A stretch of DNA of 64,000 bases from Obrimoposthia wandeli (taxonomy: Eukaryota). Location of the stretch: NCBI GenBank assembly GCA_977020255.1, contig CDROCS010003719.1, positions 372,001-436,000 on the forward strand. The letters are read 5' to 3'. Made by a program: the position numbers and the translations under genes. Below, piece after piece: positions 4,052 through 38,100 of this stretch (the stretch's first letter is position 1; each line of letters opens with the position of its first letter). The notes beneath the pieces were generated by a model. It searched no databases, had not been told where the DNA came from, and saw nothing but the letters and a program-made list of their open reading frames with translations.

Positions 4052-4504
4052 ATGGCTTTTATTGATTTAGAATGTTTTATTGATAATAATGGAGAATATA
4101 TTCCAAAGGAATTATGTATAATGTATGTGAATGATATGACTTGTCCATTTCATTACGTGTTTAAAAATCAAATACCATGGAGTAGTTTATCATTTACAGT
4201 TAAAAGAAAAAATATATATTTGATAAATCATCATCATCAGTTATCCTGGTTTGAAGGTGAAAGCTCTGATATTCATATTGATGATGTTGAAACAATATTC
4301 TATGTTATGGATTCTATTGATGGAAAGAAAATTAATTTAGTGAAACGAATGTTTCCAAATTTGAGAATTGTGAATTATAATAAAAGTTTCAAAAATTTAA
4401 AGAAAATGCCAAAAATTATTCGATGTCCGTTTAGAAAACACGGAAAACATTGTGCTTATTTGAAATGTTTTTCTCTATGTATTGATTATGTAAATTGTAT
4501 ATAA
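4052..4504 (+). CDS. DEDD/RNase H-fold nuclease-like protein with Cys/His cluster (Maelstrom-like)
   Basis: IDLE...PKEL...HHQLSW...C..R.H..HCA pattern. The 150-aa ORF is open here and has a nonsense codon in copy A2. Confidence 0.55.
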   Translation: MAFIDLECFIDNNGEYIPKELCIMYVNDMTCPFHYVFKNQIPWSSLSFTVKRKNIYLINHHHQLSWFEGESSDIHIDDVETIFYVMDSIDGKKINLVKRMFPNLRIVNYNKSFKNLKKMPKIIRCPFRKHGKHCAYLKCFSLCIDYVNCI

Positions 4505-4557
4505 ATATATTTATTAAGGATATTTTATTTTAATATATAATTTATGTTATTTAAATA

Positions 4558-7636: not shown

Positions 7637-7754
7637 GACTAAACAAACTGTTGACAATACGATTTTCAACAAGAGTAGAAACAACAGTTTTAATGTGATT
7701 GGTGAGCTAATAACTGAGATGGACTTTAACAGTAAGTAGGTGGATGTGTCCGGT

Positions 7755-10644
7755 AAAGATTTCGACAATTATTCGCCCAAAATGTACGGGACTCATTATA
7801 GTCTTGAAGACTTACACCTTCAAATTCAGTTATGGGTGGGATTTCATTAGTATTTTCTAAATCTGCAAAGGTTTTCGCAAATGTATACGGAAAAATCCCT
7901 TTATCATTAACCGAAGCTGGGAACACTGATTGTGTGATAGGCCATGCATTTAAAGATGCCGTTAAATTTTTTAAAGACCCGCTCAAAAACTGCAGAGAAT
8001 CTATGAATCTTAAACTACAGAATTCAGTATATGCAGTTAAAGATAAATATTTCTCTGAAGTTTGAGGTATACATGAAATTTCCCAAGAGCTTAATGTACC
8101 CAACGCATATTTAAGTATATGATGCAAATCATATACTTTGAGGTTATGAAACACGATGGGAATTCGTGGTTTTTTAGGGAGACGACGGCCAAGGTTACAG
8201 AGGTTGCACGCCGCTCCCAAATATCGCTCCGTAACATGATCGTGATCTCTGACTAACTTAGACTGGGTTCCACACAAATAACATAATCTACAAGAATTAA
8301 AATTAACCCAGTCTATGCCTGTCATGATCAATGCTTGATGATCATTAAGATCATACCACGGTTTGACAATTGTTGTTCCTAATTCTTCTAATTTTAACAT
8401 AAAATCTAAAATACAATTTGGACCGGAAAATTTATGATACTGTGTAATATTGGGCCTAAGAATAGTAGTCCTTCCGAAGCCGGTAGGTGAATACTCTCAT
8501 ACTGGTCGTGCAATGCTAAAATTGACTCAAAATTTGCATACACCCTGAATTCCACGGGTATGCATTTTGCCCAATCCCTGAATTTTAAATCCTTATCCTT
8601 AGGCATGCTATATAGCGTATTGTCATCAGGATTCAGTGAACATAATGTCAGATGTTTGCTGTAAGAGAGCTCGGATCGGAATCCATGCAAACATCTATGA
8701 CACCACTTACACCTTATCCTAACCGGTAAGGCTCCATTATCTAAATTTAGAAGACGATCTAAACTGGGAATTGCAGCATAATGGAATTTATTATTCTGTT
8801 CGAGCAAAATTAAGTTGACCTGAGTCCCCTCATTTTTGCTCCTATAAATTACATCTACAAAAGGATTTTTAAAAATTTCTTCATCTGTTACATTAACTGG
8901 GATATCAGTATTATATTTAAATACATTAATACTCAAGTTATTAAGATGTTCAAATCTTGATATCGCAGTTAATTTAACAGGAAAATCTATTCCATGATAC
9001 GGCAATTCATTTAAAAAAGGGGTATATTTACTGACACGCTCTCTATGTTCAGTAATTACATGCCTTTTGAGGATGGCCGACACGCTATACAGAAAGCAAA
9101 GGTTATCACTGTTTTGTATGTTAACAATGGAACGTGAAATTTGAAGAGATCTAGGTGAAGGAATGTATGAACTCCCCGAAAGATATATCATGTCAGTGAA
9201 CTTTGTTAGAACAAAGATAACATCGTGAATTCTAACTAGAGTCCATTCACTATTTAACTCGCTATAATTAGCAATTTTTTCATCTAGGTTTCTTCCAATT
9301 TCAGTTACAAAATTATCATAGAAAACAGTTGCTTTATGTGAAATTACCCAAGTTTTAGTCTCCTCATTGACATTTTTAAACTGTACTGTTGCGCAAAATT
9401 GAACCTTAGCCTGTCCAAATTTAGTCACTTCTGATTTTAAAAGATTTTCAATATTTGAATTTGCACTGACGTTTTATAAAATTTCATTTCCTAATGGCAC
9501 CTTAACTATAACATATTTATTATTTAGGTGATACTCTATAGTAGCACCGTTTTCTCTACGTTTTTTTGGTGGGACCTTATTAAGAAATTGGCCTCGCCTC
9601 TTTCTTCCTACAGTCGCTGACAAACCTCCCCCTAATTGAACGGGAAGACAACTATTTATATTAACAGTTGACACAAACGCAGCTGAGATTGAAGGTGCTG
9701 CTATTGGTGATGCTGCCGATGTTGAGGTAATCGCAGATGATGTAGTAGATGCTGCTGTGGTAGATGCTGCTGTAGTAAGTGCTTCCGCAGTTGTAGATGC
9801 TGCATTTGGAGTAGTAGCCGACATTGCCGATAAAGAAGCGGCTGTTGTAAAGGATGATGCTGCTGAAATAAATATATTAAAAAATAAATATATTTTTAAA
9901 AATTATTACCTCTAAGGCGTGCTAACATCGATGTAGGCACTCGCGATTGGGGAGGCATAGATGTCGTAGCGGATGACGATTGTATCACGGTATTTCCTGA
10001 ATAAAAAAATTAAAAAATATATAATTACAATTTTAAAAAAATAATAATAAAAAATACCTAATGAAGGCAATCCAAGTTGAGCTGAAATGAAGTCCTCTTC
10101 ATTGATGGAATCCATCCAGCTGTCGTCCGTTATCTCGACGAAATCGGATTCCTCGATGGTCTCCAACCATGAGTTATCGCTCCATTGCTCCATCTCGAAT
10201 TCTGGCTGGGATATGTCATTCATCCACTCATTGTTAGTCATTTGAGTGGATGGGGAAGAATCAGGAGCGATAGAGAAGGACCAATCGCAGGACCGTAAAC
10301 GGGTTGATCGACTGCAACTGGAATTGGTGCATGTGCGGCCTGCGAATCGCGCACCAATTGCACGATATCCCTCTTCTTGTTGTTGGCCGTGAAACAGGAT
10401 AGATGAGCTCGATGTTCACCGAAGAAGTTTCGAATCTTCTTCTCCTCCATTGTTCTGCAGAAGGGGCAGACGAAGAAGTGAAGCCCGCGAGACTTTGTCC
10501 GATAGTAGGCGGACATTATCTCCATGCAGGTCTCTCCTCCATGCGGAGCCGAAGCACCACAATATGCTGGAAACAGGATACAAGTAATCTGAAATAATAA
10601 ATATTAATAATGAAATAATAAGTATAGATTCTTACCTTAGTCAT
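7755..10644 (-). pseudogene. polB: Protein-primed DNA polymerase B gene (5' half), three predicted introns, truncated after the exonuclease region
   Basis: Predicted exons 10644-10636, 10588-10058, 9996-9910 and 9862 onward. In-frame TAA at 9474, frameshifts near 10275 and 8400. DNLCF/HY (vOTU-like), CHRCLHGF zinc finger, DHDH..CNLCN, FHNL..YD, FIDSLQF. Confidence 0.85.
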
Positions 10645-11282: not shown

Positions 11283-11860
11283 AGTAGGTAGATGTGGCAC
11301 TTCTGGAACAAAGCCCCCCCCTGAGGACAAGTCAAAAATCTAGGTCAAATTTTTTGAAGTGGACAAAAAATTTAAGTCAAATTTTGAAATTTCCGCGGAA
11401 AATTTGAAATATAGGTCAAATTTTTTGAAATTTGAGCGAAATTTTTTGAAAATGTTTGAAATTTCCATGAAATTTTATGAAAATTTTGAAATTAGCGCGA
11501 AAATTTTTGAACTCAAATTTTTTATGACAGATGTAGGTCAAATTTCTCCCGAGTACACATGATTTTTTATTTAAAGTCATGACCTCATAAGGTCAAGGGC
11601 ATGTCCTCATGAGGTCATGGGAAAAATCTAGATCATGACCTCATAAGGTCAAGGGCATGACCACATAAGGTCAAGGGCATGTCCTCATGAGGTCAATGTC
11701 TAGGTCATGAGCTCATGTGCTCACCATGAGCCCAAGGTTATCGTGCAGGTCTAGGTTGAGCTCATGTGCTCACCATGAGCCCAAGGTTATCATAAGCTTC
11801 ATGCTCACTATGAGCTCATGTCATGAAAGACAGACATCTAAGCACATCATCATCTAAAAG
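11283..11860 (+). repeat. Internal terminus-like sequence followed by GAAATTT and AGGTCA/TGACCT repeat clusters
   Basis: AGTAGGTAGATGTG at 11283, then a C-tract and short imperfect repeats. Confidence 0.55.
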
Positions 11861-13732: not shown

Positions 13733-13943
13733 ATCTGCTCGCTTCGTCCGTTTCTGACAGGCGCGAAAAACGTTTTGGGACCCCCCCTTTAAAACCGTGC
13801 ATGTGTGTGGAGTGAAATTTCACTCCACACACCTACACGAAATTTCACTCCACACACATGCACGGTTTTAAAGGACAGGGGGGTTGTGGATTAGACCGGA
13901 CACATCCAGCTACTACAGTAATTTATTTAATTTATGTTTTTAA

Positions 13944-18699: not shown

Positions 18700-21600
18700 T
18701 TTAAAAGTTGCCACAAGGCAAAAACTGGGATATGACACACCTGTACAAATTATTGACATAAATGTACAAATGTTCAGTTCCGTTAATGTCATCCACATTG
18801 TGCTTGTTCACGAAGGTCAGCCCGCCTTGAATTTCAGACTGGAAGAGACGGTACATCTTTGGGTCTTGGATTAGCTCGACTCTCACAAGATGAGGAGCAG
18901 CAGGTGAAGCAAATGTGGAAAAGAATCTGACACGACCATATCGTAAGGAAATTTAACTTTGCTGCTAATAAGTAGTTGTGGGAAGACGGAATGTGTTAGA
19001 GTAGTGACACACAGGTTCTTAACATGTTTTGCAAGCCCGATGTTACAAAATTGTAACGAGTCTATAAAGTGAATACATAATCCTACAATGTGCACCAAGA
19101 TAGGTTGTAATTTCTTTGGTGATTGAGGAATGACATATACTCCAGTGCGAATTTTGATTCGATGCTTGCTTGAAGATGTGCATATATAGAGTTTTCTAGT
19201 TTTAAATACATGCTTTCCATTGAATTACTATCGACCCACTGCCCCAGTTACGGTATTACAGATTTAGTACAACTCAATTCTTAAATATTGTTCCTACTAG
19301 TTTTAATCGTTTGTTTATAATTTTCTTTGTAGTTTTTCTTTGTTTATATCCAGTTTCCGAACTATTTTTTCTATTTTAGAAAATAAGCTAAATCAGGACT
19401 AATATAATCTACTTTACCAATAAAATATTTCTTTAGAGTTGAAATTAATTTCTCATAACTTGAAAAGCATTTAGAACCTACTTTAGCAATGAATTGAACA
19501 ATATGTTAAAGAATAGGGAAAGCAAAGCGATAAAGTGTTTTATCTATCCTGGACCGTATTGTTTACCAAAGAAATAAAATACTTATTTTCCCTACAACGG
19601 TTTACTATATGTATCTACAATACTTACATCAATCATATTTTACGAAAATGTACTATTAAACTTGTTTTAGCACTTTAAATAAATTTAATTAGTCTACCAG
19701 AATCACTACGTATATTAAATTCAATATTGTTTATAGAAGAAGAGCTTACTAGGAGATACATTATATAATCAGTGGGAGCATAGAAATTTTTCTATACATA
19801 TGATTCACTTGTTGTATCCAGATAGCTTTAATTAAATATGATCGCGCTCTTCCTACTAGTATTGATTCTGTGAAACTAATGTTAAGATTAGGAATTTATA
19901 AAATTAAAATAATATCGACTATTTATAAGAAAAAAATAAAAACCTTGAATTAAGGTTAAATAAAATTTAAAATTAAAAATAATAAAATTAATTTTAACAA
20001 AACTAAAATAATTTAGGACCTTGAAAAGGTCATGTATGTTGCGTTGTATGTAGGTGTGTTTGGGATGTGGGATATGGCCAAAAAAATAATATCTTTCAAT
20101 TATTATATCAATACTTTCGATGTATATGCCAACTATTTCTACTCACCAAGATCTAATCGTTTCTCTTCGGTGGGTCTATGATTATACGCTTTAGTTAGCT
20201 TTGGCCCAATCATCCCTTCAAACACTTTCTTTTTATTCTTGAATTCATTTGTTTCAAACCCGATTATTAAAGCCAATGAATTATCCATTTTAACATTAAC
20301 AATATTTGATTTCAATTTAAAAGAATTTATAAATTTATGTAAGCTGAGTGACAGGGTTATACAGTGTTCATTTCAAGAGGGTAAATTTATTTGTTTTATA
20401 ATTTTAGGTAAAACTTCAATCTATGTCTTATTACATAGTTTAGAGAAATTCCTTTTAATCAATCTTTCTACGTTCAATGAAACTGTTTAACTAAACCTGC
20501 TTTATATTGAGAAAACTCAGAATGATAATTGATACCATGTTTCTGCAATAAACCGCTAACATATTTATTATAATACTCAATTCACTATCGGTTTGAAAAT
20601 TAATTTATTGCACACTTCAAAGATATTTTTTCATTTCTTTCAGTAGGCCAGGACCTGATTTGGACTTTAAAGCTCTTACAGTTCTGCTGAAAACATCAAC
20701 ACAAGTTAAATTGTATCGTATACCTAATTAATACGGTCATATGGGATCATTTCCATTAAATCAGCTTGCCATGAATCATTAGGCCCACTCTTATTGTATG
20801 ATCTTGCTGAACATGAAGTCTCATTGGTAAGTTTAAACTGTACATTAACTCCCAGCTATGCTTTCGTATACTTTTTTTGTTTTCTTTACCTCTTTTGACA
20901 ATTTTTAAATTCCGGTATAACCTACGGGTTGACTTGGATATAACTATATCTTCTCCATTATAACAAGATTAATTAATTTCTATTTTAAACTTCGGAATAC
21001 GTAAACACATACAAAATTCATATTTTAGCTCGAAATACATGTTTAAAATCATCATTTTAGTAGTCTGTTAGTAAGTGCACCACTTACATACCCAACTTGA
21101 GGAAGAACTACAAAAACAAGAAATCCTCCCCTCTGCTTACTCTTACGTTTACCGATTCATCTTTTAACTTGAAATATGTCAAGAAGAGAGATTTTATGTT
21201 ATTTCTATTTATTTGAATTTTTAACTGATATTTTACCGGGAATTATATTTTTGATCATATTTAGCATATCAACAATTACAAAAGTATGAAACGATTTAAG
21301 AATAGCAGGTCATCGATTAGTTGGTGCACGCATAAGACAATTGAAATAAGCAATAATCCTATTTTTTCTGATTTTCAAACAACCATTTGTTTCGTATTTT
21401 TTAATTCGTATACATCTGATTTATATAATCTCTTAACTTTAGGTTTAATAATTTCATATTTGAAAGTTATCATCGTGGAACTTGTTTTTTCTAATTGTGT
21501 ATCGATCTCATACCATTAGGATTGAATATATCATTTTTAACTCTTAATTCATCGGAACATTCTTGAGTAAAATCAATGAACATGTACATGCACATTTACA

Positions 21601-22476
21601 TCTACATGAAAAGAAGTAGTATTATCTTGAAATGAATCAATTAGGAAATGTATATTAGGTGGGTAAGCTTGCCTTGAAACAAAATCAACAACCGTCTGAT
21701 CACAAATCAAATGTATTGGTAACATGAGTAAATCATGATTTGAGTGGACTAGTTTTATCAAACCCATATCGATAATGACCAATATAAAGTTTATATATTA
21801 CAATTTCACTCATTTACGTCTAGTCTAACATTTCTTTACTAGGTTTACTATATATAGAATTAAACAATATATTAAAAATAAGTCTCATATGATTCATTTC
21901 CATACTATTATATGCTCTAAATAAATCTTATTCGTTTAAAATTTTCAATCGTCACTTATCAATAATCACATAATCTTCAATTCTTACTTGTATTATTGCT
22001 ACTAATTTTGTTTCTTCAATTGATTATTTGATATTATTATCCATAATTATTGTGTATATTGCGAATATGAATGCGGAAAATCTTTATCAACGTATTCATA
22101 ATTATTACAGACATGATATGCACTTTTTGAAGAAATCTCAGAATTATTATTTTGTTTTCCCTGCTAGTGTAAAGAGGTTTAAATTTGATTATTATGTATC
22201 AAATTTGAATTAAGTAAATGTAAACTGAATCAAGAACTTTTTCAACAACATGGAATCAAAATTCAACTTCTGGAAAACAAATTTATAATCAAAGGAAATG
22301 ATGCCATTTTCAAGCGGGAGGATGGAACTTTTGCTGATTCATGTGTTTTGGGAAAGCAATGGTCTCAATTTAAAAGAATTCACGAATACAATGTCAGTAT
22401 ATGGGAACTAAAACCCGATTTCAAAAATTCTTGATTGAATAATGAATGAGTTTTATTGACATATATAGTATGTAAC
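18700..22476 (-). mobile_element. Old degraded Maverick (C): pPolB, PW, penton, integrase, pX-like and ATPase remnants
   Basis: Minus-strand fragments GGLTFVNKH and FIDSLQF (18.7-19.1 kb), GKQYG and AKTSLIVHFRK (19.5-19.7 kb), WQADLMEMIPY (20.8 kb), QRGGFL (21.1 kb), DQTVVDFVSRQAYP (21.7 kb). Confidence 0.8.
22068..22434 (+). pseudogene. Frameshifted homolog of the A2 ORF 29012-29398
   Basis: YQRIHNYYRHDMHFL aligns with YKAVQKYYEYDMFFL. IKIQLLENKFIIKGNDAIF aligns with LKIDVELENEGIFMRGDKCKF. Confidence 0.6.
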
Positions 22477-23420
22477 AGTAGGTGGAAGGATGGAGTCTAA
22501 GCCACTTTACCCCCCCCCCTAAAGGGTGTCACTCCATAAGGATGTCACATCATAAAAGGTGTCTTGCCACACCATAAGGGTATATGTTGCCTCACCTTCG
22601 GTGACCCAACATATACCCTTATGGTATGGCAAGACACCTTTTATGGTGTGACACCCTTATGGAGTGACACCCTTTAGGAGGGAGGCGGGAGGCGGGGAGG
22701 GGAGGAGAGGGGTCAAGTGGCTTAGACTCCATCCTTCCTTGATATACTACTATGGTCGTCCATAGTTTAAAGGGTCAAGTGGCTTAGTCTCCACCCTTCT
22801 TTTTGAGATATACCACTATGAAAGGGTAAAGTGGCTTAGTCTCCACCCTTCTTTTTGAGATATACCACTATGAAAGGGTAAAGTGGCTTAGTCTCCACCC
22901 TTCTTTTTGAGATATACCACTATGAAAGGGTAAAGTGGTTTAGTCTCCACCCATCTTTTTGTGATCTAGTCTCCACCCATCTTTTAGTGATCTAGTCTCC
23001 ACCCTTCTTTTAGTGATCTAGTCTCCACCCATCTTTTTGTGGTCTAGTCTCCACCCTTATTTTTGGTTAACCACTAATTCAAAGGATCAAGTGGCTTAGT
23101 CTCCACCCATCTCTTGTGGTCTAGTCTCCACCCTTCTTTTTGGCTAACTACTAATTCAAAGGATCAAGTGGCTTAGTCTCCACCCTTCTTTTTTGTGATC
23201 TAGTTCATAATGAAAATTTATGATAAAGTTCACTCTTAACAATTAAGAAATGTGGTTTTTAACACACACATACACTATTTTATGTGAAATTTATGATAAA
23301 GTTCACTCTTATCAATTAAGAAATGCGTTTTTTTTTAACACACACATACACTATTTTATGTGAAATTTAAACTAAAGTTTTTTCCTAGGCTTTCACATTT
23401 ATAGAATTATGGTAAAATTT
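22477..23420. repeat. Left TIR of A2 (hairpin 22484-22738, 11 iterons)
   Basis: Inverted match to 33700-34653. Confidence 0.92.
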
Positions 23421-23472
23421 ATTTAAATAACATAAATTATATATTAAAATAAAATATCCTTAATAAATATAT

Positions 23473-23925
23473 TTATATACAATTTACATAATCAATACAT
23501 AGAGAAAAACATTTCAAATAAGCACAATGTTTTCCGTGTTTTCTAAACGGACATCGAATATTTTTTGGCATTTTCTTTAAATTTTTGAAACTTTTATTAT
23601 AATTCACAATTCTCAAATTTGGAAACATTCGTTTCACTAAATTAATTTTCTTTCCATCAATAGAATCCATAACATAGAATATTGTTTCAACATCATCAAT
23701 ATGAATATCAGAGCTTTCACCTTCAAACCAGGATAACTGATGATGATGATTTATCAAATATAGATTTTTTCATTTAACTGTAAATGATAAACTACTCCAT
23801 GGTATTTGATTTTTAAACACGTAATGAAATGGACAAGTCATATCATTCACATACATTATACATAATTCCTTTGGAATATATTCTCCATTATTATCAATAA
23901 AACATTCTAAATCAATAAAAGCCAT
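23473..23925 (-). pseudogene. Maelstrom-like nuclease, A2 copy with AGA>TGA nonsense codon
   Basis: Near-identical to 4052-4504. Confidence 0.6.
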
Positions 23926-23979
23926 TTGAAAATAAAATAAAATGAAATACTAAAATGATATATTTGTTTATACTTAAAA

Positions 23980-24357
23980 TTATTTGTGTTGAAGTTTCAA
24001 CCATAAAAGACTCAGAGGTCCGCAGTTTTTAGTTAATGGATTCTGACATTTAACTCGATTATAGTAGACTGGAATGTTTTCTTTTTTCAAGTGTAGACAC
24101 CAACTTTGCAGGATAATAGAATCCAAAAGGATCAAACACTCGAATCTCGAATCTGTCAACGAATATTGCTATCCAATGCTCGCCTGGTAGATTTGAAGTA
24201 TGAGTATTGATAATGTAACCTCCGGGTTTTAATGATGGAATTTTATCCAATGAATATACTCCATTAAATTTGTTATTCAATAATATTTTTCCGGATTTAT
24301 GAATTTCTAAAGTACTAATTTTAATAAAGAATATAATATAAAATAAGCTTACTTCAT
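23980..24357 (-). pseudogene. Adenain-like protease, A2 copy (intron 24315-24352; +1 A frameshift near 24085)
   Basis: Same 38-nt GT-AG intron as A1. Removing one A restores ENIPVYYNRVKCQNPLTKNCG. Confidence 0.85.
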
Positions 24358-25573
24358 ACAATCACAGTTTTATTTTTCGTAATCTGAATTTCGGAATCAA
24401 ATATTCCGTAAATCAAAACACTTGTTGGAACGGTCAAAGGAGAATTAAATCTAATTTCAAGTCTTAAATTACCAGTTTTAGGCACTTGAGTAGTGTTTAT
24501 ATCAAAATCTGGTGCTAATAGAAAAGTGAAAATCGAACTTCCTGATTTAAAATCAGAAAATCTGATACCATTATTCAAGTTTTTATCTAAAATATTCATA
24601 TTTCGAATAATTGACTGCATATATGCTAATGAAAAATTGTTATTATCTAGATTATAAGTTTCTCGATAATCTGTATTTCTAGCTAATGATATTGTTGAAA
24701 CATTAAATGTATCGAATGTAGAAGATTTAACTTTGTATTCCTTACCACCCTGAGGTGTATCTTTGAAAGCAATCAAAATGAACTTGGGTAAACGATAGTC
24801 TCCGAATATTTGATCTTTATTAAGTTCCAAAGAACCCTGAGGAATTGAATATGTTACTAACTGAGTTTTTCTAATTGGGTAAACTGCATTCTGACTTTGC
24901 AAACCTAACTGATGTCCAATCATTACTGAAGAATCAACTTTTACTCTTCTAACATACAATCTAGCATCTAGAATTTGAATAATTGGTTTTGAAGTTTCTG
25001 AATAGAGCGAAAAATTATGCTGATTTCTCATAAATCTCAAATGAACATTAATCCCTGGAATCAAATATTTTGGTTGTTCAAAGAAATCTAATCTAATTGA
25101 ATTACATAATGAAAATATTTTAGATTCACTAATCCATTGTTTACGATTTTCTGCTTCATCATCATACCCACTACATTCAAGGTTAGTATACTTGGTATCA
25201 CTACTAAAATTCAAAAGAGTATCGAATATAGCCTTATGAGTATACGTTCCATTTCCTCCTTCAACCTTTACATTATTAAGTGTTAGAATAACATCTCTAA
25301 ACAAAGTTTGAAACATGTAATTCTCTGGAGTTACATCACTATCTTTCATTAAATCAGTACCATCTTCATTTACAACTTTTAATTTAATATTTAACAAAGT
25401 ATCATTCAAATCCAGATAATCTTCTTCAGATGCATGAATATTAAATTCTATGTCATTTAAATTTTTCCAGTAATTGAATTGATTGGAAATATTTCTTCAA
25501 AACATGAATTTTCAATCACTACTTGAGGTAGTGGTCTATCGAAAATACACAATTCAGATTTTATACTAGTCAT
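24354..25573 (-). pseudogene. Major capsid protein, A2 copy (1-nt deletion near 25465)
   Basis: Near-identical to 2413-3633. Confidence 0.9.
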
Positions 25574-25968
25574 TTTGGAAAATAGTACCTTTAAGACGTT
25601 TGTTTATACTATTTAAATTATTTCTTTTACGTTTAAGACCCTTTCCATTTTGTTCAACACAATTTGCGACTTTATTTAAACTATCAACAGCATTATTTTT
25701 TAATTTTGGAATCAAAGTTTTGACTTCTTTGATTGTATTTTCTTTGAGAGATGAAATTATGTTTTTGATTTGTTAACGCAGTTCCTACCGTTTCACCAAT
25801 TACATTGGCAGCACTTGTAGCTGCTGATAAACCAACTTTTTTTAACAATGGAATAGCTAATCTAGAAATAGTTTGATACCAACCAGATCCATATTGTTTA
25901 CCAATGAAATAGGGAAGTTCACCGCCCTGTTGACTTTTGCTATAAAATTTTATAATTGATGTATTCAT
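25563..25968 (-). pseudogene. PW/PZ-type protein, A2 copy, frameshifted
   Basis: Near-identical to 2016-2420. Confidence 0.7.
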
Positions 25969-26009
25969 TTTATATATATATATTTATATTTTAAATATAT
26001 TTATATTGT

Positions 26010-26880
26010 TTATACTTTACGTAAATGAAGAGTTAAACTAGTTTTTGCTCCATATGAAAATGGAATTAAATTACCAGAATCATCACGTATATTTACCTCG
26101 ATTCTATTAATACTTGAACCTCACATTATTTTCAAGTACATTGGATTATCAATTTTAACATTTACTACATCTCCATATCGATATTTTAATGATTTTAACC
26201 AAATAGACTTTAACAGTGGAACATAATCAGATCCTACTAAGACAGAATCTGTTAAACTAGTATAAATATACATTTGATTATATGAGCTAGAAAGTGTTGG
26301 TTTTTGAAAACCTTTAATTCGTTTCTCAAAGAAAACATTATTAAAACCTAATAAAGATGCAAGTTTTTCGTCAAATAAAACTGATTTTACATTTTTCTTT
26401 AATAAAATATCAAATAATCCGTCTGAATCTATATTACAGCTTTTAAAAATTTCATTACATTTACTGGCTATAATATTACATAATGAAGTACTATCTTGTA
26501 TCAAATAATTTTGATTAAATTTTATTTCGTATTCATATTCAGCTAAATAATAAATTGTAATTCTCATTTTAGCATGAATATTTTTATTTATGTCAACAAT
26601 TTCATCACTTGTTATAACATGACTAGAAATTTTTTGTATTTCATTAAAACCTATAATTTTTGATTCATCTAAAGTTTCGAATTTTAACAACATTCGATGA
26701 ATACTGTTAATTGTACTTATTTCTAATTTTTGATTCTTTGTAATTTTGAAATTGAAAACAGTATTTAAATTATTAAAAATTAATCCATTTAAAATTGCAA
26801 AAGATACATCGAAAGTTTTCATTTCTATCTTTTCCGTTTTATAAAGTATTTTTGAATTAGTTTGTATTGTTAAAGGAGTA
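26010..26880 (-). pseudogene. Penton, A2 copy (N-terminus deleted, TGA at 26121)
   Basis: Comparison with 962-1974. Confidence 0.85.
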
Positions 26881-27721
26881 TATATAAAATATACATTATT
26901 GGATTTTGTTTATAATTAATATCATGAATTTGAAAAACCTCATCACTCCAATTTTGATTAAAATTTTTAATAAATGGACTTGTACTTATTTTTGATATTC
27001 GAACATAATCATCAATTTTATATTTAGATTTAAGTTTCTTTTCTTTTAGATTTTGTTTCAACAAAATATCAAATTCATTTTTATTATTTACATCTACAGG
27101 TTTTAAACCATCTAAACCTCTATGTTTAGAATTATTATAAGCATAAATAATTTTTGGTAATACATTCACCCATTTCTTATTACCTTGTTTAGTAAAATAT
27201 TTCTTTAACCGTTCTCTTAACGTTCTATTAAATCTTTCAACTACTGCAGCTTTATATTGAGAATATACTGAATAATGATTGATATTTTCAGTTTTAAATA
27301 ATTTCTTAACATGTGAATTAAAAAATTCTTTACCTTCATCGGTTTGGATATTTACTGGTACATCATCAACAATTAAAGATTCTATTGCATGTAATAAATC
27401 AATACCTGATTTTGTTTTAACACCAACTGCCCTTGCAAAACGACTAAATACATCAATACAAGTTAAAATATACTTGAATCCATTATTTACTGAAGAATAA
27501 GGAATCATTTCCATTAAATCCATCTGCCATAACGAATTAATACCATTAGTTTTATATGATCTAGTAGGGAATTTACGTCTTAAAGGTTTATTCAGACTAT
27601 ATGATAATTCATTTCTTAACCATTTTTGTGTGTTTGTTTTTGATTGTTTGACTCTTTTTGTCAATTTTTCTAACCCTGTATAACCGTCTGGATCTTCTGG
27701 ATTGTTCCAAATCTTTTCCAT
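26870..27721 (-). pseudogene. Integrase, A2 copy: catalytic core in frame, chromodomain removed by a ~334-bp deletion
   Basis: QMD, QTD and VERF triad intact. The junction equals A1 position 773 joined to 1108 through filler TATA. Confidence 0.9.
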
Positions 27722-27865
27722 TGCAGCATGAAGAATTAAAATTTATAAATAAGTTAGACAACTTTGTATTGTTTATCCCCATTATTATAAAAGTTAAATA
27801 TATTTTAATCTGTTTATATGTTTGTATAAAACGAATGAATGTAATTATTTTCGTTATTAAGACAA

Positions 27866-28277
27866 CTATCCCCATCTTGAAGATATAACACTAGCTATTA
27901 CTGATGCTAAAGCGGGCAGTAGGGCCAATATGAATCCGCCATTTTGATTATAAATAATGTTTCTTTTATTAATTTTACCACGTGAATTTGCTAAATTTAT
28001 TAATGAATTTTTATATTTTAAAATATTATCATCAGGTTTAATTTTACCATGAATTATTTTATTTAAAATTTTATTAAATCATCAACTACATAAATTGGAA
28101 ATGATTTCAACATTTTCATTTTATTCGTTTTTGGTACGTCAATTAAGGTTTTAAAATAAGGTAAACTTTTTGAAAATTCAATATTATTACGATCATATAA
28201 TACAGTATTTATTAATTTTTTAACTTCATCTTTATCTGTCCTTTTACTATGTTTAAGAATACTCTTTTAAAATTCAT
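27866..28277 (-). pseudogene. pX-like small protein ending in QNGGFILALLPALASVIASV (frameshifted; absent from the ORF track)
   Basis: Manual translation: basic helical body followed by GGF and a hydrophobic tail. Confidence 0.65.
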
Positions 28278-28278
28278 T

Positions 28279-28930
28279 TTATTTTAAAACATTATTATTA
28301 TTATTTATTTGTTTATAGACTGTAATACCATTACGATTAAATATATCAGTAACAATTCTTAAATCATCAGGACATGATTGAGTAAAATTTTAAAAATAAA
28401 TAACCATGTGGTAAAGATGTAGCATCATGAAACGCATCAATTAAATAACTCTTGTTATGAGGAAATGCTTGACGAGCAATAAAATCTATCACTGTTTGAT
28501 CTCTAGGATTTTTGAATAAAATCAAATAATGTACATTAAGATTACGAGTACGATGATTTCCTCCTTGATGAAATAAATTTTGGGTTATAAAAATTACAGT
28601 AACTTCTCTATGTCTTGCAATTTTTGTAAATAAATCATTAAAATCAGATTCTTTGTTAGCCTCTTGATATAAGTCATCAATAACAATTACATCACCTTTT
28701 ACAAGTCTTGTCGTCCAATTTTCATCAAAACCGTTAATAATCTTAATGTTTTTTATTTTATTAAACTCTTGGTTTGTTAAACCAGCTTCTCCATCACCAC
28801 CTTGATGCCAATATATTTTATTAAATTTATTTTTAAACATTTTTGAATTTAATAATTTACAAACAAATAAAGTTTTTCCACTACCACTTGGTCCTACTAC
28901 TTGAAAAGTTGAATTGTTTGTTAATAACAT
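28279..28930 (-). pseudogene. A32/FtsK-like packaging ATPase (+1 T frameshift near 28385)
   Basis: Walker A GPSGSGKT, Walker B VIVIDD, ARHR..T.IFITQN. The corrected C-terminus reads FTQSCPDDLRIVTDIF. Confidence 0.9.
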
Positions 28931-29011
28931 TATATATAAATATTAATATAAAATAAATATATCAGAATAAGTACATGTTTATAATAATAACAACATTTTA
29001 TTAAATATTTA

Positions 29012-29398
29012 TTAAACATCAAAATATTCGGTCGCTGTATGAATCCTCCAGATGAGAGTTGTTTCATTCTGTTTATTTATTTTATATCCGAGAATTTTTA
29101 TTTCGAGCATCCAACTTCTTCCATCTTCTTGAATATCCGAAATCTTTGTTCCACCACAATCATAAAATTTACACTTATCTCCGCGCATAAATATACCCTC
29201 ATTCTCAAGTTCGACATCAATTTTCAAATATTTGACGATTTCATTGAATTGTTGAATGTCTTTGTCATCAAAATCAGAGACTCGGTAATTGTACAAAGTT
29301 TTCGATAATGTCACTGGCATAGTCATTGGTTGAATCCATGCCGATGCCAAGAAGAACATATCATACTCGTAATACTTTTGAACGGCTTTATAAGACAT
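29012..29398 (-). CDS. Conserved hypothetical Maverick protein, 128 aa (possible OB-fold SSB)
   Basis: Intact ORF with a homolog in degraded element C. The fold assignment is inference only. Confidence 0.55.
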   Translation of the reverse strand: MSYKAVQKYYEYDMFFLASAWIQPMTMPVTLSKTLYNYRVSDFDDKDIQQFNEIVKYLKIDVELENEGIFMRGDKCKFYDCGGTKISDIQEDGRSWMLEIKILGYKINKQNETTLIWRIHTATEYFDV

Positions 29399-29414
29399 TT
29401 AAAAATTGAATGAT

Positions 29415-29880
29415 TTAATTAGAAATTGTTTCGTATTTATATAATTTATTTTTAATGTATGTCATGATATCGTTAACTTGATCTTGAAAATCTAAATTTC
29501 TAAGACCTAAAATTACGACCTTTCCAGATGTGAAAAATATTTACACACAATGGATTGAAAATATTTAATCTTAAGACTGGGAAAACCTCAGAGGCAAATG
29601 AACATGCATTACGTAATACATTCGATAATTTAAATAGATTGATACTTTGTTCTAAATTTTCACATATCGTAATTGATTGAATACCAAGTATATTTATTCT
29701 TAAAGGGTAAGAAATATTTTTAATAGGTACCTTACATCCCATAATCCTGCATTTCTTATTTCTAAAAATAAGTATTGTATAGTCTTTGGCTTTATAAACG
29801 TATTGTTCTGGTCGTGTTCGAAATTTTAATTTGGATACATCATCTAAGCAAATTCCTTTATAATTAATATTTGTTAACAT
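29415..29880 (-). CDS. TATA-binding-protein (TBP)-like protein, 154 aa after removing one T near 29535
   Basis: Two TBP-like repeats: TILIFRNKKCRIMGCK and IQSIT...INLFKL...FASEVFPVLRL...VNIFTSGKVVILG. Confidence 0.75.
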
Positions 29881-29984
29881 TGTAAGTAAAATAATTAAAT
29901 TATTGTATTTATATATTTTTTTTTTATTCAGTCTACAAATCAACCAATATCCAATCAGTCCAATCAAATCAATCATATCATCAG
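29881..29984. promoter_or_regulatory. Candidate bidirectional promoter between the TBP-like gene and pPolB
   Basis: 104-bp gap with three CCAAT (29944-29965) and TATATAAATA on the minus strand about 30 nt above the TBP-like ATG. Confidence 0.5.
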
Positions 29985-32900
29985 ATGAGTATATGTAAAA
30001 CTTATTCAAATATTTGTTTTTCGGATACACATTTTAATCCTCAAGAATGTCATGATATAATGAAAAAATATTATGGTTATTCAAACAAAAGATAAATTAT
30101 TTCATATGTCCACAATGTTTAAGCACTGAAAATGTTGATTACAACTTATTTTATAGTCGACATGTTAGTCATTTAAAAGCATATGAAAATGTTAGTAAGA
30201 AAGAATTATTTAAAGTACCGGCTTTAAGCAAAAGAACTGATATAATTAATGTACCATCAAACATAGTAATTTCAGCTCCTACAATTACGTCACGAAAACG
30301 TAAAATAAATGATAATATACATACTAAAACATCATTAGAAAATAGTTATTCAATGATATCCATGAAAGTAGATCATCTCAATCTTGTAAGTCTTAAGGTT
30401 CCAGTTTCATTATTAAACGAACTAGAAAGAATAGTGCAATTAATGGGAAAAGCAAAGATACAATACATCATTAGAATGAGGTTTGAAAAGAATGATGGAG
30501 AAACTAAAGAATGGTATGCTTCACATCGAGCAATGATTTTTTCACATGCTATAATTTCAGAAATGGAAGATACAATGGAAAATAAAGTTGAAGAATATTC
30601 AGAAAAAGGTAGTGGTTGGAAATTGATGAATATACTTGAATATGCATTTATTGTTACTAAATATAGTCAAATTTGTGCATTGTCAGGTCATTCATATATT
30701 AAATCACCAAATTCTCTTGCAAAATCTAAAGCAGTCATAAATATTCTAAACTCTGATAATCTTTGCTTTATTTATGCAATATTGTCAATACTTAAATATA
30801 ATGAAATAGACTCACATAGAAATAGACCAAGCAACTATGAAAGATTTTTAAATGATTTTGTATATAATTCCGAAGACATGCCTATGAAAATATCAAATAT
30901 ATCAAAATTTGAACGGCAAAATCCTGGTATAATAATAAATGTATTCATATTCAACGAGGTAAGTGAAAAAGAATCAAAAACTGATGTTATCAAGAATCCA
31001 TATATTGATATTGCATACAAATCAAAAATAAAGGAAGGAACTATAGTTAATTTATTGTTACTAGAATCCAAGGAACGGTTTCATTATATAGGAATAAGTT
31101 GTCTTAACCGACTATTAAATATTCGAACTGGAACGACTAGAATTAGCAGAAAATGGTGTGAAAAGTGTTTACATGGTTTCAATACCGATTTGTCATTAGA
31201 AAAGCATAAAGTTTTATGTGACTATAATCAAGAAAGCACTACAATGTATACTATGCCTAAGAATAAGTACGTTAAATTCAATGATTGGTCAAAAACTATA
31301 TCACCAAAATATGTCGTTTACGCTGATTTTGAATCTGTATTAGTACCAGATGAGAGTTATCATCAAAAGCATATGCCTGTCGCATCTGGCATGTTATTTA
31401 TGAGTACAGATGAAATTGAAACCCAGTATCAATATAATGTTGGTGACGACTGCATAGTTAAGTTTCTTCAGTCAATAGAGAACTTAGCTAAAGAAAAGGT
31501 TTTGCCATGGTATTTAGATGCTCTTAAAAACGTAATGATTCCCTTAACAAATGCAGAGATTCATACATTTAGCAATGCCAATGAATGTTATTTATGTCAC
31601 GAATCATCTGAAAAATATGTTAAAGATCATGATCACTTTACTGGTAAATATCTAGGTCCGGCATGCAATGAATGTAATTTATCAAGAAAACTTCGTCCAA
31701 CTTTACCTATTGTGTTTCATAATCTCAGAGGTTATGATTTACATCATATTTTAAAACATGCATTGAATAAATTTACTGACTGGGATATAAATATTATACC
31801 ACAATCAACGGAAAAGTTTCAAGCCATGATTGTAAGATTAGGTCAAATAACTCTGAGATTTATAGATTCTTTGCAATTTTTACAATCATCTTTGGAAAAT
31901 TTAGCAACTAAATTACCAACTATTCCATTAACAAGATCAGTTTTTCCATCTAAACTTATTGATGGCAAAGGAATATTTCCATATGATTTTGCTACATCAT
32001 TAAATGTCCTCCAGAATAAGTTAAGTTTACCAGTAAAATGGAATGATAAAATCACAGACACTGAATATCAAAAAGCACAAGATGTTTGGAAAATAACCAA
32101 TTGTAGAAATATGTTGGATTATATGTTAGTTTACTTAAAGACTGACGTATATTTATTAGCTGACGTATTTCAAACATTCAGAAGAAAAGCTCTCAGTGAA
32201 GATGGTTTAGAACCACTTAACTTTTTTAGCATTTCTGGGTTGAGTTGGGCAAGTGCACTAAAAATGTTAAAACATAAGGTTGAACTGATGCAGGATCCTG
32301 AAATGTACAACATGATTTCTTCGGGTATACGAGGAGGAATGACATTTGTCAATAAGCATCATGTAGTCGCTGATGAAGAAACAAGTCTTTTATATATAGA
32401 TGTTAATAATTTATATGGATGGGCTCTTGATCAACCTTTACCAAAAGGAGATTTTGAATGGATTCTTGATGATATAAAATTAAACGAAATATTGCATGAA
32501 ATGAAAAATGTGAACATGGAACATATTGAATATGGTTATTTTATGGAAGTAGACTTGGTAATACCAGAAAACCTTCATGACTTTTTAGATGATCTTCCTA
32601 TAGCTCCAGAAAAGAAATGTCCACCTGGTAAAAAAGTTGAAAAACTTTTATTGACACATTCGCCAAAAAGTCATTATGTTATTCATTGGAGACTATTGCA
32701 GATGTATGTTAGTTTAGGAGCAGTGGTAACAATTATTCATCGAGCAGTAAAATTCTCTCAGGCTAAGATATTCGCAGAATATATAGAATATAATTCAGAA
32801 ATGAGATCACAAGCAACGAATAAATGTGACAAAGATTTTTATAAACTTAAAAATGTTAGTTTGTATGGAAAGACTGTTGAAAATGTTAAGAAACGATTGA

Positions 32901-33625
32901 ATCTTCGCATCTGCACTAGTTCTACAAAATTAATCACATATACTAGCAAACCTATGTTTCAACGATCAATTGAAATTCATGATAATTTAATAGCTGTTTT
33001 ATTAAGAAAAGATTTTATTTGTCTCGATCGACCAAATTATATAGGCCAAGCTGTACTAGACCTTAGCAAATTACGAATGTATACTCTTCAGTATCATGAT
33101 TTGCAAATATATCGTAATTTATTCAATTGTTCAATTAATATAGTTGCCGGTGATACCGATTCATTCTTTTTGGAATGTAAAAACGTTAATTTAAGAAAAC
33201 AGTTGTTACCAAAAATGATTGCAGATGGATTATTAGATACGTCAAATTATAATGTGAATGATCCATTATATTCTAATAAATTTAATAGTAAAATAGGTTT
33301 ATTTAAAGATGAATCGGAAGGAAGAATGTATAAAGAATGGATTTTCTTACTTTGTAAATGTTATTCACTTAAGTTTGAAGATGACTTTGAAAATAATAAA
33401 GCAAAAGGAGTAAATCTTAAGGGTTCAACGGTTGTACATCAAACATATTTAGATGTGTATGAAAACGGTATTGCATATACTATACCTCAAAAGAAGTTTG
33501 GAACAATAAATCATCAACTATATACAATCATAATACAAAAGACTGCTCTCAGCTCATCAGATGACAAGCGCTATTGGATCGAGAAAAATAGAAGCCGCGC
33601 TTATGGACATTATGAAATAACATAA
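29985..33625 (+). CDS. polB: Protein-primed DNA polymerase B (about 1213 aa with the N-terminal extension; 1-nt deletion near 30090)
   Basis: GSGW, DNLCF...HY, CEKCLHGF...H zinc finger, YADFES, DHDH...CNECN, FHNLRGYD, YIDVNNLYG, SLYGKT, DTDS. The frame is open from 30056 to 33625. Confidence 0.95.
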
Positions 33626-33699
33626 TAAATGTGTTTAATTTTGTATTATTCTCTGACTTCTTTCTTATTTATTTTTTGATTTAATTTTTGATTTAATAC

Positions 33700-34653
33700 A
33701 AATTTTAACATAATTCTTTAGATGTGTAAGCCTGAGAAAAAAAAACTTTGAACTAAATTTTCACATAGAATAGTATGTGTGTGATTACGTAATACATTCT
33801 TAACTGATAAGAGTGAACTTTAGTATAAATTTTCACATTGAATAGTGTGTGTGTGTGTTAAAAACCACATTCCTTAACTGATAAGAGTGAACTTTATCAT
33901 AAATTTTCACATAGAATAGTATGTGTGTGATTACGTAATATATTCTTAACTAATAAGAGTGAACTTAGTATAAATTTCACATAGAATAGTGTGTGTATGA
34001 TTACGTCATACATTCTTAATTGGTAAGTGTGAACTTTATCATAAATTTTCATTATGGACTAGATCACAAAAAAGAAGGGTGGAGACTAAGCCACTTGATC
34101 CTTTGAATTAGTGGTTAACCAAAAAGAAGGGTGGAGACTAGATCACAAAAAGAAGGGTGGAGACTAGATCACAAAAAGATGGGTGGAGACTAGATCACAA
34201 AAAGATGGGTGGAGACTAGATCACAAAAAGATGGGTGGAGACTAAGCCAATTGACCCTTTCATAGTGGTATATCTCAAAAAGAAGGGTGGAGACTAAGCC
34301 ACTTTACCCTTTCATAGTGGTATATCTCAAAAAGAAGGGTGGAGACTAAGCCACTTGACCCTTTAAACTATGGACGACCATAGTAGTATATCAAGGAAGG
34401 ATGGAGTCTAAGCCACTTTACCCCTCTCCTCCCCTCCCCGCCTCCCGCCTCCCTCCTAAAGGGTGTCACTCCATAAGGGTGTCACACCATAAAAGGTGTC
34501 TTGCCATACCATAAGGGTATATGTTGGGTCACCGAAGGTGAGGCAACATATACCCTTATGGTGTGGCAAGACACCTTTTATGATGTGACATCCTTATGGA
34601 GTGACACCCTTTAGGGGGGGTAAAGTGGCTTAGACTCCATCCTTCCACCTACT
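33700..34653. repeat. Right TIR of A2 (8 iterons, hairpin 34395-34646)
   Basis: Inverted match to 22477-23420. Confidence 0.92.
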
Positions 34654-35138
34654 TGTAACCTTATTTATTTAAAAAAAGCAAACACATACATTTAGATTTA
34701 TTTTATCATTGGAGTCAAAGAAAAAAAACTATCAACGAAATAATTCAAAATTATTTTCAAAAAAACAAAACTAAATATGACTGATGATGCATTCTCATGG
34801 AGGGTATCTACTTCCGAGTTTGGTGCTCAATGATGCTAGGGTTTCCATCACTCCAGAAACAAAGAAAACATGGTTTTCCCTATGCTCCGGCATTTCCTTC
34901 TAGAGAAATGGTTTAATCAGCTTCATTTTCTCTTCCAATGAACAGCTGCTCTTCATTGTGTGGGCTACCATAGTATAAATACTGACAAGATATGAAAAAT
35001 GTTTTCTTCTTATATACTCTTCTTGAACTATTTAATTGGCTTAACATATTTACATATATCGACATTTAGTTACGTGATATACAAACTTGCATATGAAAGG
35101 TCATATTTACACATTAACATATATCGACATTTAGTTAC

Positions 35139-38100
35139 GTGATATACAAACTTGCATATGAAAGGTCATATTTACACATTAACATTAAAATTGTTTATAG
35201 TTGATAAAAATTCATTTAGACAAATTTATTTTGTCCATATAATCGTTTAAAATGTATTAAATACTATTTTCTTTTAAATTAAAAATACTGTTGTTGATTA
35301 TAATTTAAAGTTTAATATATTTAATTGATTATATTCATATTTGCAACTGTGTACAAAATTGATACAATGTAAAATATATAGAATATAAAAATAATCAATC
35401 GAGCTGATAATTCTAACAATAAAATAGTAAATTAATTATTTAAATGTAGACTAAAATTGTACATTAAGTAGTAAAGAAATATAAAGAAAAATCAATTATT
35501 TCATAATATTTGAAATTTTGATTTTTATATTTCATGCACATGCTAAATATTAATACTAATTCCAACATCACGTGGCATTGACTTATACGCGAGCGCCATT
35601 GTAACATTTTGCGCAAACAGCTATATCGTGATATACAAACTTGCATATGAAAGGTCATATTTACACATTAACATTAAAATTGTTTATAGTTGATAAAAAT
35701 TCATTTAGACAAATCTATTTTGTCCATATAATCGTTTAAAATGTATTAAATACTATTTTCTTTTAAAATAAAAAATACTGTTGTTGATTATAATTTAAAG
35801 TTTAATATATTTAATTAATTATATTCATATTTGCAACTGTGTACAAAATTGATACAATGTAAAATATATAGAATATAAAAATAATCAATCGAGCTGATAA
35901 TTCTAACAATAAAATAGTAAATTAATTATTTAAATGTAGACTAAAATTGTACATTAAGTAGTAAAGAAATATAAAGAAAAATCAATTATTTCATAATATT
36001 TGAAATTTTGATTTTTATATTTCATGCACATGCTAAATATTAATACTAATTCCAACATCACGTGGCATTGACTTATACGCGAGCGCCATTGTAACATTTT
36101 GCGCAAACAGCTATATCGTGATATACAAACTTGCATATGAAAGGTCATATTTACACATTAACATTAAAATTGTTTATAGTTGATAAAAATTCATTTAGAC
36201 AAATTTATTTTGTCCATATAATCGTTTAAAATGTATTAAATACTATTTCTTTTAAATTAAAAATACTGTTGTTGATTATAATTTAAAGTTTAATATATTT
36301 AATTGATTATATTCATATTTGCAACTGTGTACAAAATTGATACAATGTAAAATATATAGAATATAAAAATAATCAATCGAGCTGATAATTCTAACAATAA
36401 AATAGTAAATTAATTATTTAAATGTAGACTAAAATTGTACATTAAGTAGTAAAGAAATATAAAGAAAAATCAATTATTTCATAATATTTGAAATTTTGAT
36501 TTTTATATTTCATGCACATGCTAAATATTAATACTAATTCCAACATCACGTGGCATTGACTTATACGCGAGCGCCATTGTAACATTTTGCGCAAACAGCT
36601 ATATCGTGATATACAAACTTGCATATGAAAGGTCATATTTACACATTAACATTAAAATTGTTTATAGTTGATAAAAATTCATTTAGACAAATTTATTTTG
36701 TCCATATAATCGTTTAAAATGTATTAAATACTATTTTCTTTTAAAATAAAAAATACTGTTGTTGATTATAATTTAAAGTTTAATATATTTAATTGATTAT
36801 ATTCATATTTGCAACTGTGTACAAAATTGATACAATGTAAAATATATAGAATATAAAAATAATCAATCGAGCTGATAATTCTAACAATAAAATAGTAAAT
36901 AATTTATTTAAATGTAGACTAAAATTGTACATTAAGTAGTAAAGAAATATAAAGAAAAATCAATTATTTCATAATATTTGAAATTTTGATTTTTATATTT
37001 CATGCACATGCTAAATATTAATACTAATTCCAACATCACGTGGCATTGACTTATACGCGAGCGCTATTGTAACATTTTGCACAAACAGCTATATCGTGAT
37101 ATACAAACTTGCATATGAAAGGTCATATTTACACATTAACATTAAAATTGTTTATAGTTGATAAAAATTCATTTAGACAAATTTATTTTGTCCATATAAT
37201 CGTTTAAAATGTATTAAATACTATTTTCTTTTAAAATAAAAATACTGTTGTTGATTATAATTTAAAGTTTAATATATTTAATTGATTATATTCATATTTG
37301 CAACTGTGTACAAAATTGATACAATGTAAAATATATAGAATATAAAAATAATCAATCGAGCTGATAATTCTAACAATAAAATAGTAAATTAATTATTTAA
37401 ATGTAGACTAAAATTGTACATTAAGTAGTAAAGAAATATAAAGAAAAATCAATTATTTCATAATATTTGAAATTTTGATTTTTATATTTCATGCACATGC
37501 TAAATATTAATACTAATTCCAACATCACGTGGCATTGACTTATACGCGAGCGCTATTGTAACATTTTGCACAAACAGCTATATCGTGATATACAAACTTG
37601 CATATGAAAGGTAATAATTTACACATTAACATTAAAATTGTTTATAGTTGATAAAAATTCATTTAGACAAATTTATTTTGTCCATATAATCGTTTAAAAT
37701 GTATTAAATACTATTTTCTTTTAAAATAAAAATACTGTTGTTGATTATAATTTAAAGTTTAATATATTTAATTGATTATATTCATATTTGCAACTGTGTA
37801 CAAAATTGATACAATGTAAAATATATAGAATATAAAAATAATCAATCGAGCTGATAATTCTAACAATAAAATAGTAAATAATTTATTTAAATGTAGACTA
37901 AAATTGTACATTAAGTAGTAAAGAAATATAAAGAAAAATCAATTATTTCATAATATTTGATATTTTGATTTTTATATTTCATGCACATGCTAAATATTAA
38001 TACTAATTCCAACATCACGTGGCATTGACTTATACGCGAGCGCTATTGTAACATTTTGCACAAACAGCTATATCGTGATATACAAACTTGCATATGAAAG

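Follow-up and report, generated by a model that had tools for sequence, protein, structure and literature searches.

What, if anything, do the long fold-back hairpins at both ends of a Maverick element in the 1.35-Gb genome of Obrimoposthia wandeli contribute to its replication? To our knowledge, Maverick replication has been modelled but never observed. A first-pass annotation of a 64,000-nucleotide stretch of this genome (the window) took the hairpins to hint at a parvovirus-like step, or at a cruciform resolved by the EndoVII-like domain of the element's pPolB. We find that an obligatory step of either kind fails the tests that we ran. Given that sister copies lacking the hairpin are common and that parvovirus-style flipping is absent, the hairpins look like recurring copy-back products, and on balance we favor the view that the hairpin is an optional fold-back, generated by template switching, on a protein-primed Maverick end.

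The element and its terminal fold-backs

The element occupies positions 22477 to 34653 of the window (12,177 bp). It has AGTAG...CTACT termini, is bounded on both sides by the 6-bp target site duplication (TSD) TGTAAC (22471-22476 and 34654-34659), and carries terminal inverted repeats (TIRs) at 22477-23453 (plus strand) and 33668-34653 (minus strand), the left one being about 0.9 to 1 kb long with a 404-nt core that is 99% identical to the right one. On the minus strand lie an rve integrase (26870-27721; PF00665, E = 3e-10) and an A32-like packaging ATPase (28367-28930; Pox_A32, E = 5e-6, above the cutoff), together with a putative maturation protease (24059-24361; Peptidase_C5, E = 0.003, under the cutoff) and a further element feature at 24354-25496. 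The plus strand holds a pPolB-type polymerase frame with an Endonuclease_7 insertion (30056-33625; E = 9e-6). This frame has no Pfam polymerase match. It is 43 to 44% identical to another frame of the window (7726-9473) that matches DNA_pol_B_2, the family B motifs are invariant in the pPolB alignment, and 2,711 relatives were found at E ≤ 1e-30; the Atlas look-alikes of its N-terminal 400 amino acids carry no family. The DJR capsid protein is a candidate drawn from DJR look-alikes, as a lead only, and neither the capsid ORF nor the EndoVII-like stretch has a sequence match in the PDB. An ORF at 29500-30033 has a weak TBP-like Pfam match (E = 4e-4, under the cutoff) and is also found in other families. 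The nine element ORFs scanned against Pfam include no Rep/HUH family, and there was no Rfam match.

TIRs, termini, TSD, integrase, pPolB, and ATPase together identify the element as a Maverick, as the first-pass annotation had it, the protease and DJR capsid being the weaker members of the set. In its gene set, its TIRs of about 1 kb, its AG...CT termini, and its 6-bp TSD it resembles other Maverick/Polinton elements (Polintoviricetes); its TIR also holds a nested 255-nt fold-back, a feature for which our literature search turned up no account in animal Mavericks that encode pPolB. Positions 1 to 5361 of the window contain a second, partial copy of the same family in the opposite orientation, whose hairpin, at 5361, is truncated by loss of the tip (z = -13). 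The frame at 7726-9473, which likewise has an Endonuclease_7 insertion, adjoins a hAT fragment (6330-7511), and the terminus of a third Maverick family, with AGTAG, a C-tract, and self-complementary repeat units (z = -7), lies at 11283-11800. Polymerase, integrase, and ATPase fragments at 18704-21743 suggest that the focal element sits inside or beside an older Maverick. Directly to its right is a tandem array of ca. 489-bp units (35041-40750).

On the left and right alike, the fold-back starts 7 nt in from the terminus, at 22484-22738 (-121.2 kcal/mol, z = -21.6) and 34395-34646 (-122.1 kcal/mol, z = -21.8), with no shuffle as stable in 200 for either. At the left end, the 7 terminal nt (22477-22483) stay outside the fold-back and leave a free 3′ tail on the minus strand. 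The outer 24-bp box (22484-22507, plus strand) runs opposite to the subterminal array and pairs with that array's first unit, the inner box (22715-22738, minus strand); the same box recurs 12 times in the 26/52-bp tandem array that follows (22739-23200, minus strand), so the arm described as an outer stem is one inverted copy of it. A plus-strand C-tract (22510-22519; 10 nt here, of varying length among copies) pairs against a longer, interrupted G-rich tract of the inner arm (22677-22712, plus strand). Between them lies the inner palindrome (22520-22676), a 70-bp stem made of 17- to 18-bp repeat units with 3 mismatches, followed by a 2-by-2 bubble (22590-22591/22605-22606), a 5-bp tip stem, and a loop (22597-22599) that reads TTC on the plus strand and GAA on the minus strand. 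The right loop (34534-34536) reads GAA on the plus strand. The ends differ in C-tract length (10 versus 7) and in one inner-arm base, which gives a mismatch beside the outer stem on the left and a pair on the right. We thus confirm the hairpin anatomy first described, including the 24-bp outer stem, the C- and G-tracts, the stem mismatches and bubble, the GAA loop closed by C-G on both 3′-terminal strands, and the like orientation of the mismatch markers at the two ends.

The inner AGTAG had been likened to a second, inverted origin. It is present (22747-22751, minus strand) as a variant of the 52-bp repeat, but it is not conserved and lies 6 nt out of register with the terminal copy. Across the family it occurs in 75 of 127 parsed hairpin ends, in 0 of 6 long-hairpin ends, and in 0 of 35 hairpin-less ends, never in register; being so patchy, it is not a second origin.

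Orientation and matching of the arms among copies

The fold-back is a family-wide feature rather than a one-off, as was expected. The best 40 matches to the left end are 99 to 100% identical over 294 nt, the exact 31-nt terminus occurs 976 times in the genome, the apex motif has at least 3,000 matches per strand, and loop orientation was read in 3,299 terminus-anchored hairpin ends. With about 3,300 ends in one genome, the orientation tests proposed at first pass become feasible. Five end pairs with the same 16-nt flank at different places (L110/L117, L125/L130, L142/L155, L173/L174, and L182/L192, the last both solo remnants) are allelic or duplicated insertions.

Of 19 retrieved ends that have an apex, 18 show GGA, GAA, AGA, ATA, or GGT as the loop on the 3′-terminal strand, and many lack the 2-by-2 bubble. 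The first 50 of the 2,960 unflipped ends carry GNA (27 ends), AGA (18), or ATA (5), and the common loops are all of the purine type R-N-A. With GNA in only about half of these ends, cGAAg is a mark of the youngest subfamily and not of the whole family, so a requirement for a cGNAg loop is not borne out. Nearest-neighbor energies fail to separate the loops (all are -7.9), and the argument from GNA stability therefore rests on the literature, where cGAAg is the most stable loop type (PMC3201870).

According to two reports, AAV-type replication yields independent, random flip and flop (PMC11575299), and template switching yields arm homogenization and spacer inversion, mainly where the arms are perfect (PMC8604942). 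Among our ends, the loop reads as in the window in 2,960 and is reversed in 339; inverted apices do exist, then, but far from 50:50. We read 60 of the reversed ends: a perfect apex is present in 54, the other 6 represent a longer-hairpin variant with a probably ancestral ATA loop, and the bubble in the window orientation occurs in none. Scaled up roughly from small samples, an estimated 16% or so of perfect apices are inverted (15 to 19% per loop class). Bubble ends number 1,257 canonical and 30 with inner-type bases in the outer arm, which limits true flips to at most 30 of 1,287. By eye, these 30 include 6 center inversions with differing and often unequal boundaries, 2 bubble swaps without a loop flip, 3 arm conversions, 6 solo remnants, and 12 ends broken near the apex; unequal, variable flip boundaries are seen at L101, L103, L109, L113, L115, and L129. 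A search for the terminus together with an inner-type tract gave 131 matches, and the 30 that we read included 1 whole-arm flip (L149) and 24 ends of the sister type discussed below.

Flipping also shows little sign of inheritance. Among 77 perfect-apex ends, the nearest neighbor has the same loop family in 56 cases versus 32.1 expected (0 of 5,000 shuffles) and the same orientation in 46 versus 42.1 expected (P = 0.25), and because orientation is not clustered, we regard the flips as sporadic. Ends with one inner tract, in which 5 of 6 readable loops are flipped, had hinted at a heritable flipped lineage; we rejected this idea in view of the excess of flipped ends in the sample (51 of 77) and the negative neighbor test. 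Two elements have flipped loops at both ends (L163/L164 and L165/L166), which is about the chance level. Arm deletion or garbling affects 19 of 60 flipped ends and 10 of 50 unflipped ones, so single flipped ends could be assembly errors. Taken together, the orientation data fit template switching rather than AAV-type flip and flop.

The arms themselves are closely matched. In 123 of 123 hairpin ends the outer and inner boxes share the same state, AGC or GAY, and so do the boxes of 27 of 27 hairpin-less ends; we set aside 2 hairpin and 4 hairpin-less ends with other states. Both states occur in each of four loop families, and in one element (L054/L055) the two ends differ from each other while each is internally matched. 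Rare stem variants recur in the opposite arm, at one site in 8 of 10 cases, and most ends have arms of equal length. Several mismatches nevertheless persist in dozens of ends, the outer stem included, which argues that arm copying is occasional and not obligatory. Either arm conversion or selection for pairing could explain the matching of the boxes in all 150 ends, and a structural role for the 24-bp outer stem and the purine loops of the 3′ strand is possible, with this matching as the chief argument for it.

Ends without the hairpin and other Maverick families

The family has sister copies, equally common, whose ends share the terminus, outer box, and C-tract but have a direct array of the same 17- to 18-bp units in place of the palindrome. 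We found at least 2,223 matches on one strand; on the reverse strand, 3,317 were counted, some of them twice. The long palindrome is absent from all 63 such ends that were read and present in 132 of 139 hairpin ends. Three of the four full-length candidates that we examined are flanked by exact TSDs, and their paired TIRs differ by 10, 11, and 24 substitutions across 800 to 875 nt. Their bodies are 92 to 98% identical to the window element, and pPolB is 96% identical in L198. Absence of the hairpin from other recent copies had been named at first pass as an observation that would refute the interpretation, and for the inner palindrome we do observe it; rolling-hairpin replication would require a hairpin in all replicating relatives, and not all have one. 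Most of the hairpin-less copies that we read have stops or frameshifts and on that account may be older.

The hairpin-less sisters keep the CxxC, DH, and CN residues of the EndoVII-like insertion, which we take to be catalytic. A regular expression for this motif matches 114 of 150 homologues. Since the motif is present with and without the hairpin, the nuclease domain does not track the hairpin, and the proposed link between the two is not supported. Endonuclease insertions in Polinton pPolB have been described (10.1101/2023.08.22.554363; PMC11161782), and the Endonuclease_7 insertion here may correspond to the HNH domain described there. The accessible text of the former has no occurrence of “hairpin” or “palindrom.”

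In a tree of 42 rows and 520 columns from inside one end, hairpin-less ends are basal and also form one short-branched clade nested among hairpin ends; hairpin state changes twice on it, versus 8.3 changes expected. The corresponding tree of the other side has no well-supported branch. The hairpin's outer arm aligns with the beginning of the array in hairpin-less ends, where the CACCATAG word of the array is the site of both apex types. This alignment would point to a one-step fold-back origin, with the existing inverted box as the point of reentry.

Beyond the focal family, a looser Maverick terminus pattern has 17,618 matches genome-wide. Several families share a C-tract about 30 nt from the end as a common end design, and the genome is unusually rich in Mavericks. 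The first 30 of these loci yielded a second family (integrase 65 to 69% and ATPase 68 to 76% identical to the focal ones). Some of its ends have a 45- to 54-bp hairpin that starts at the C-tract, with an 11- to 15-nt loop and no outer-box partner, and others have a direct array only; this hairpin is differently built and was gained independently. Full-length ends of other families have no partner box either. One second-family end in the window (13786-13906) is a 36-bp perfect inverted repeat with a 17-nt spacer, followed by a 13-bp tandem array, and in four others (L299, L318, L349, and L357) the hairpin or array continues into a long (CACAC)n-type tract.

Outside this host, the material was sparse. 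In viral contigs, a single-protein scan found nothing, the terminus motif gave one unrelated-looking match, and an alignment scan gave 21 distant loci, of which 3 have TIRs and none a long end palindrome, the ends probably being incomplete. Metagenomes gave 80 loci with 8 terminus-like matches, of which 3, plus one viral contig, looked real by eye. One of these four convincing termini has a hairpin (26 bp), too few to generalize: a distant Polinton (L415:1-330; Ga0102948_1005720) that ends in AGTAGT, has its C-tract some 30 nt in, and forms the 26-bp hairpin, without mismatches, at 134-192.

Terminus-to-terminus remnants of the focal family occur at 14 places, 10 of them with exact TSDs, and another set of solos has exact TSDs in 4 of 6; one solo derives from the hairpin-less type (L188). 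Several join an inner-type arm to an outer arm, as expected if palindromic TIRs act as direct repeats and recombine. A further 320 such remnants belong to the second or third Maverick family. At L183 (9 nt), L187 (18 nt), and L363 (at least 6 nt), the inverted copy extends into the host flank, so that some switches, if these events are real, took place in the chromosome. A comparison of the L183 junction with contigs of four runs from one sample gave short contigs only, none of those listed spanning the junction.

Origin and possible role of the hairpin

If template switching made the hairpin, the ancestral end would have read, from the outside in, terminus, box, C-tract, direct array of 17- to 18-bp units, G-tract, and inverted box. 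A polymerase copying this end would fold back at a mini-palindrome in the array (CACC-ATA-GGTG), copy the outer units in reverse, and rejoin the template at the preexisting inverted box or G-tract, creating the long palindrome in what would be one step. Later, occasional switches would homogenize the arms and invert the apex. The outer arm of one end would then be a direct repeat of the inner arm of the other, which would give rise to the terminus-to-terminus solos. The long inner hairpin would be inherited and tolerated without being needed, and replication would presumably still start at the AGTAG terminus, as knowledge of the family suggests.

Such a course is consistent with the identical termini, closely similar pPolB, and unchanged nuclease motif of the hairpin-less sisters; with flips that are unclustered, unequally bounded, and concentrated in perfect apices; with arm variants and unit numbers shared between arms; with the alignment of arm to array and the basal and nested positions of hairpin-less ends in the tree; with the second family's independent hairpin, which again has hairpin-less sisters; and with inverted copying into host flanks. 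Quasi-palindrome template switching (the Ripley model, PMC8604942) shows the same arm homogenization, spacer inversion in perfect arms, and recurrent parallel events; here, unlike there, the arms are 60 to 77 bp long and lie at the end of a mobile element, about 16% of perfect apices are inverted by our estimate, and solos are a by-product. Several observations sit less comfortably with template switching. The hairpin has been retained across several subfamilies in succession and is present in the ends that are youngest and most uniform. R-N-A stands on the 3′ strand in 2,960 of 3,299 ends, yet it is the 5′ strand that carries ATA in the ancestral word. Selection explains the matched box states equally well, and the weight of the sister copies and of single flips is lessened if the former are older and the latter assembly errors.

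Some of these observations could also reflect an origin like that of Streptomyces telomeres, to which we assign a real but minor chance. Pairing of the outer and inner boxes within the displaced single strand would leave the 7-nt 3′ tail for terminal-protein priming (or, in a variant, would block self-priming and nucleases), hairpin lineages would be at an advantage, and the later long inner stem and purine triloop would speed folding. The boxes match in all 150 informative ends, across every loop class, in hairpin-less ends, and within each end of L054/L055; the 3′-strand loops form a one-step series, ATA-AGA-GGA-GAA, with cGAAg in the youngest ends; and flips, at an estimated 15 to 19% of each perfect-apex class, have founded no visible lineages. 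There is also precedent, since Streptomyces telomeres (PMC4513846) are protein primed on 3′-strand hairpins closed by sheared G:A pairs, that is, on GNA-capped palindromes. Those palindromes, however, are conserved, required, and bound by Tap, whereas sister lineages of the focal family do without the inner hairpin and its loop, GNA caps only 27 of 50 unflipped ends, and such hairpins are absent from hairpin-less and second-family ends. Moreover, second-family hairpins start at the C-tract, with 11- to 15-nt loops and no outer-box partner, while the hairpin-less ends of that family and those of other families have neither hairpin nor partner box; outer-stem mismatches persist in many ends; and doubly flipped elements are about as frequent as chance gives. 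As the loop bases are the only ones that arm copying leaves unprotected, loop drift needs no selection. The fullest form of the idea, in which the ends are folded single-strand origins, the outer box presents the 7-nt 3′ tail to the terminal protein, the long stem improves on this, and selection drives ATA toward cGAAg and purges flipped loops in each generation, seems to us rather unlikely.

We consider it improbable that the hairpin is real but that flipped loops, garbled arms, inverted flanks, and some solos arose as long-read consensus or polishing artifacts at perfect palindromes. The flat, unclustered flip frequency across loop classes, the garbled arms in both flipped and unflipped ends, and the many frameshifts in near-identical copies would all suit such an origin. 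Polishing would hardly produce inversions with unequal boundaries, solos with exact TSDs (10 of 14 and 4 of 6), or a hairpin-less solo (L188), and fixed mismatches are reproduced in more than 1,200 ends. Even if true, it would leave the optional status of the hairpin unchanged.

We give least credit to a replication or excision step in which hairpins prime and are transferred in parvovirus fashion, or in which the EndoVII-like domain resolves a cruciform: trimming of 7 nt would turn the 3′ end into a hairpin primer, flipped apices and one whole-arm flip (L149) exist, 12 of the 30 GG-outer ends are broken close to the apex, and the insertion keeps its CxxC, DH, and CN residues, but orientation stands at 2,960:339 overall and 1,257:30 at the bubble where AAV-type transfer would randomize it (PMC11575299), inversions have no fixed boundary, whole-arm flips amount to 1 in the 30 read of 131, no Rep/HUH is encoded among the nine ORFs, and the same nuclease motif accompanies hairpin-less ends and 114 of 150 homologues. 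The likeness to parvovirus and AAV ITRs is that of a terminal fold-back with asymmetric markers (same source); the focal ends differ in the lack of Rep, of a fixed resolution site, and of random flip and flop, in the 7-nt tail outside the hairpin, and in the integrase-made TSD.

Terminal palindromes are not in themselves new. A recent preprint (bioRxiv 10.64898/2026.07.28.741278) describes palindromes inside TIRs, adjoining the TSD, in endogenous virophages and PLVs of Halocafeteria seosinensis, draws a hairpin-priming model for them, names accidental annealing as an alternative, and calls for a wider test. As described there, these are 52-nt palindromes, mostly with non-pPolB replicases, in few copies, and with no orientation test; the focal Maverick has 255 nt, pPolB, and about 3,300 ends, and its orientation counts speak against hairpin transfer. 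The accessible text of PMC11296320 has nothing on PLV end hairpins. Some TIRs of casposons, which are pPolB-encoding self-synthesizing transposons, have internal palindromes (PMC4046053); casposons are prokaryotic, use a Cas1 integrase, and have palindromes with no assigned function. Our search of openly available papers turned up nothing on long fold-backs, on counts of their orientation, or on solo remnants for the Mavericks of animals.

The thousands of ends analyzed here amount to such a wider test of hairpin priming, in a pPolB Maverick, and they lack the signature of hairpin transfer. The hairpin has been gained and lost among sister lineages and arose more than once. A consequence that our literature search did not turn up is that palindromic TIRs double as direct repeats and yield terminus-to-terminus remnants (14 in the focal family and 320 in others). 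If the ends are folded origins after all, fold-back ends and solos would represent a recurring route of origin evolution in protein-primed viruses, and the solos would be the Maverick analogue of solo long terminal repeats (LTRs), possibly integrating copy-back defective genomes. Should the matched outer stem or the loop bias turn out to have a function, Maverick origins would have their first known structural requirement.
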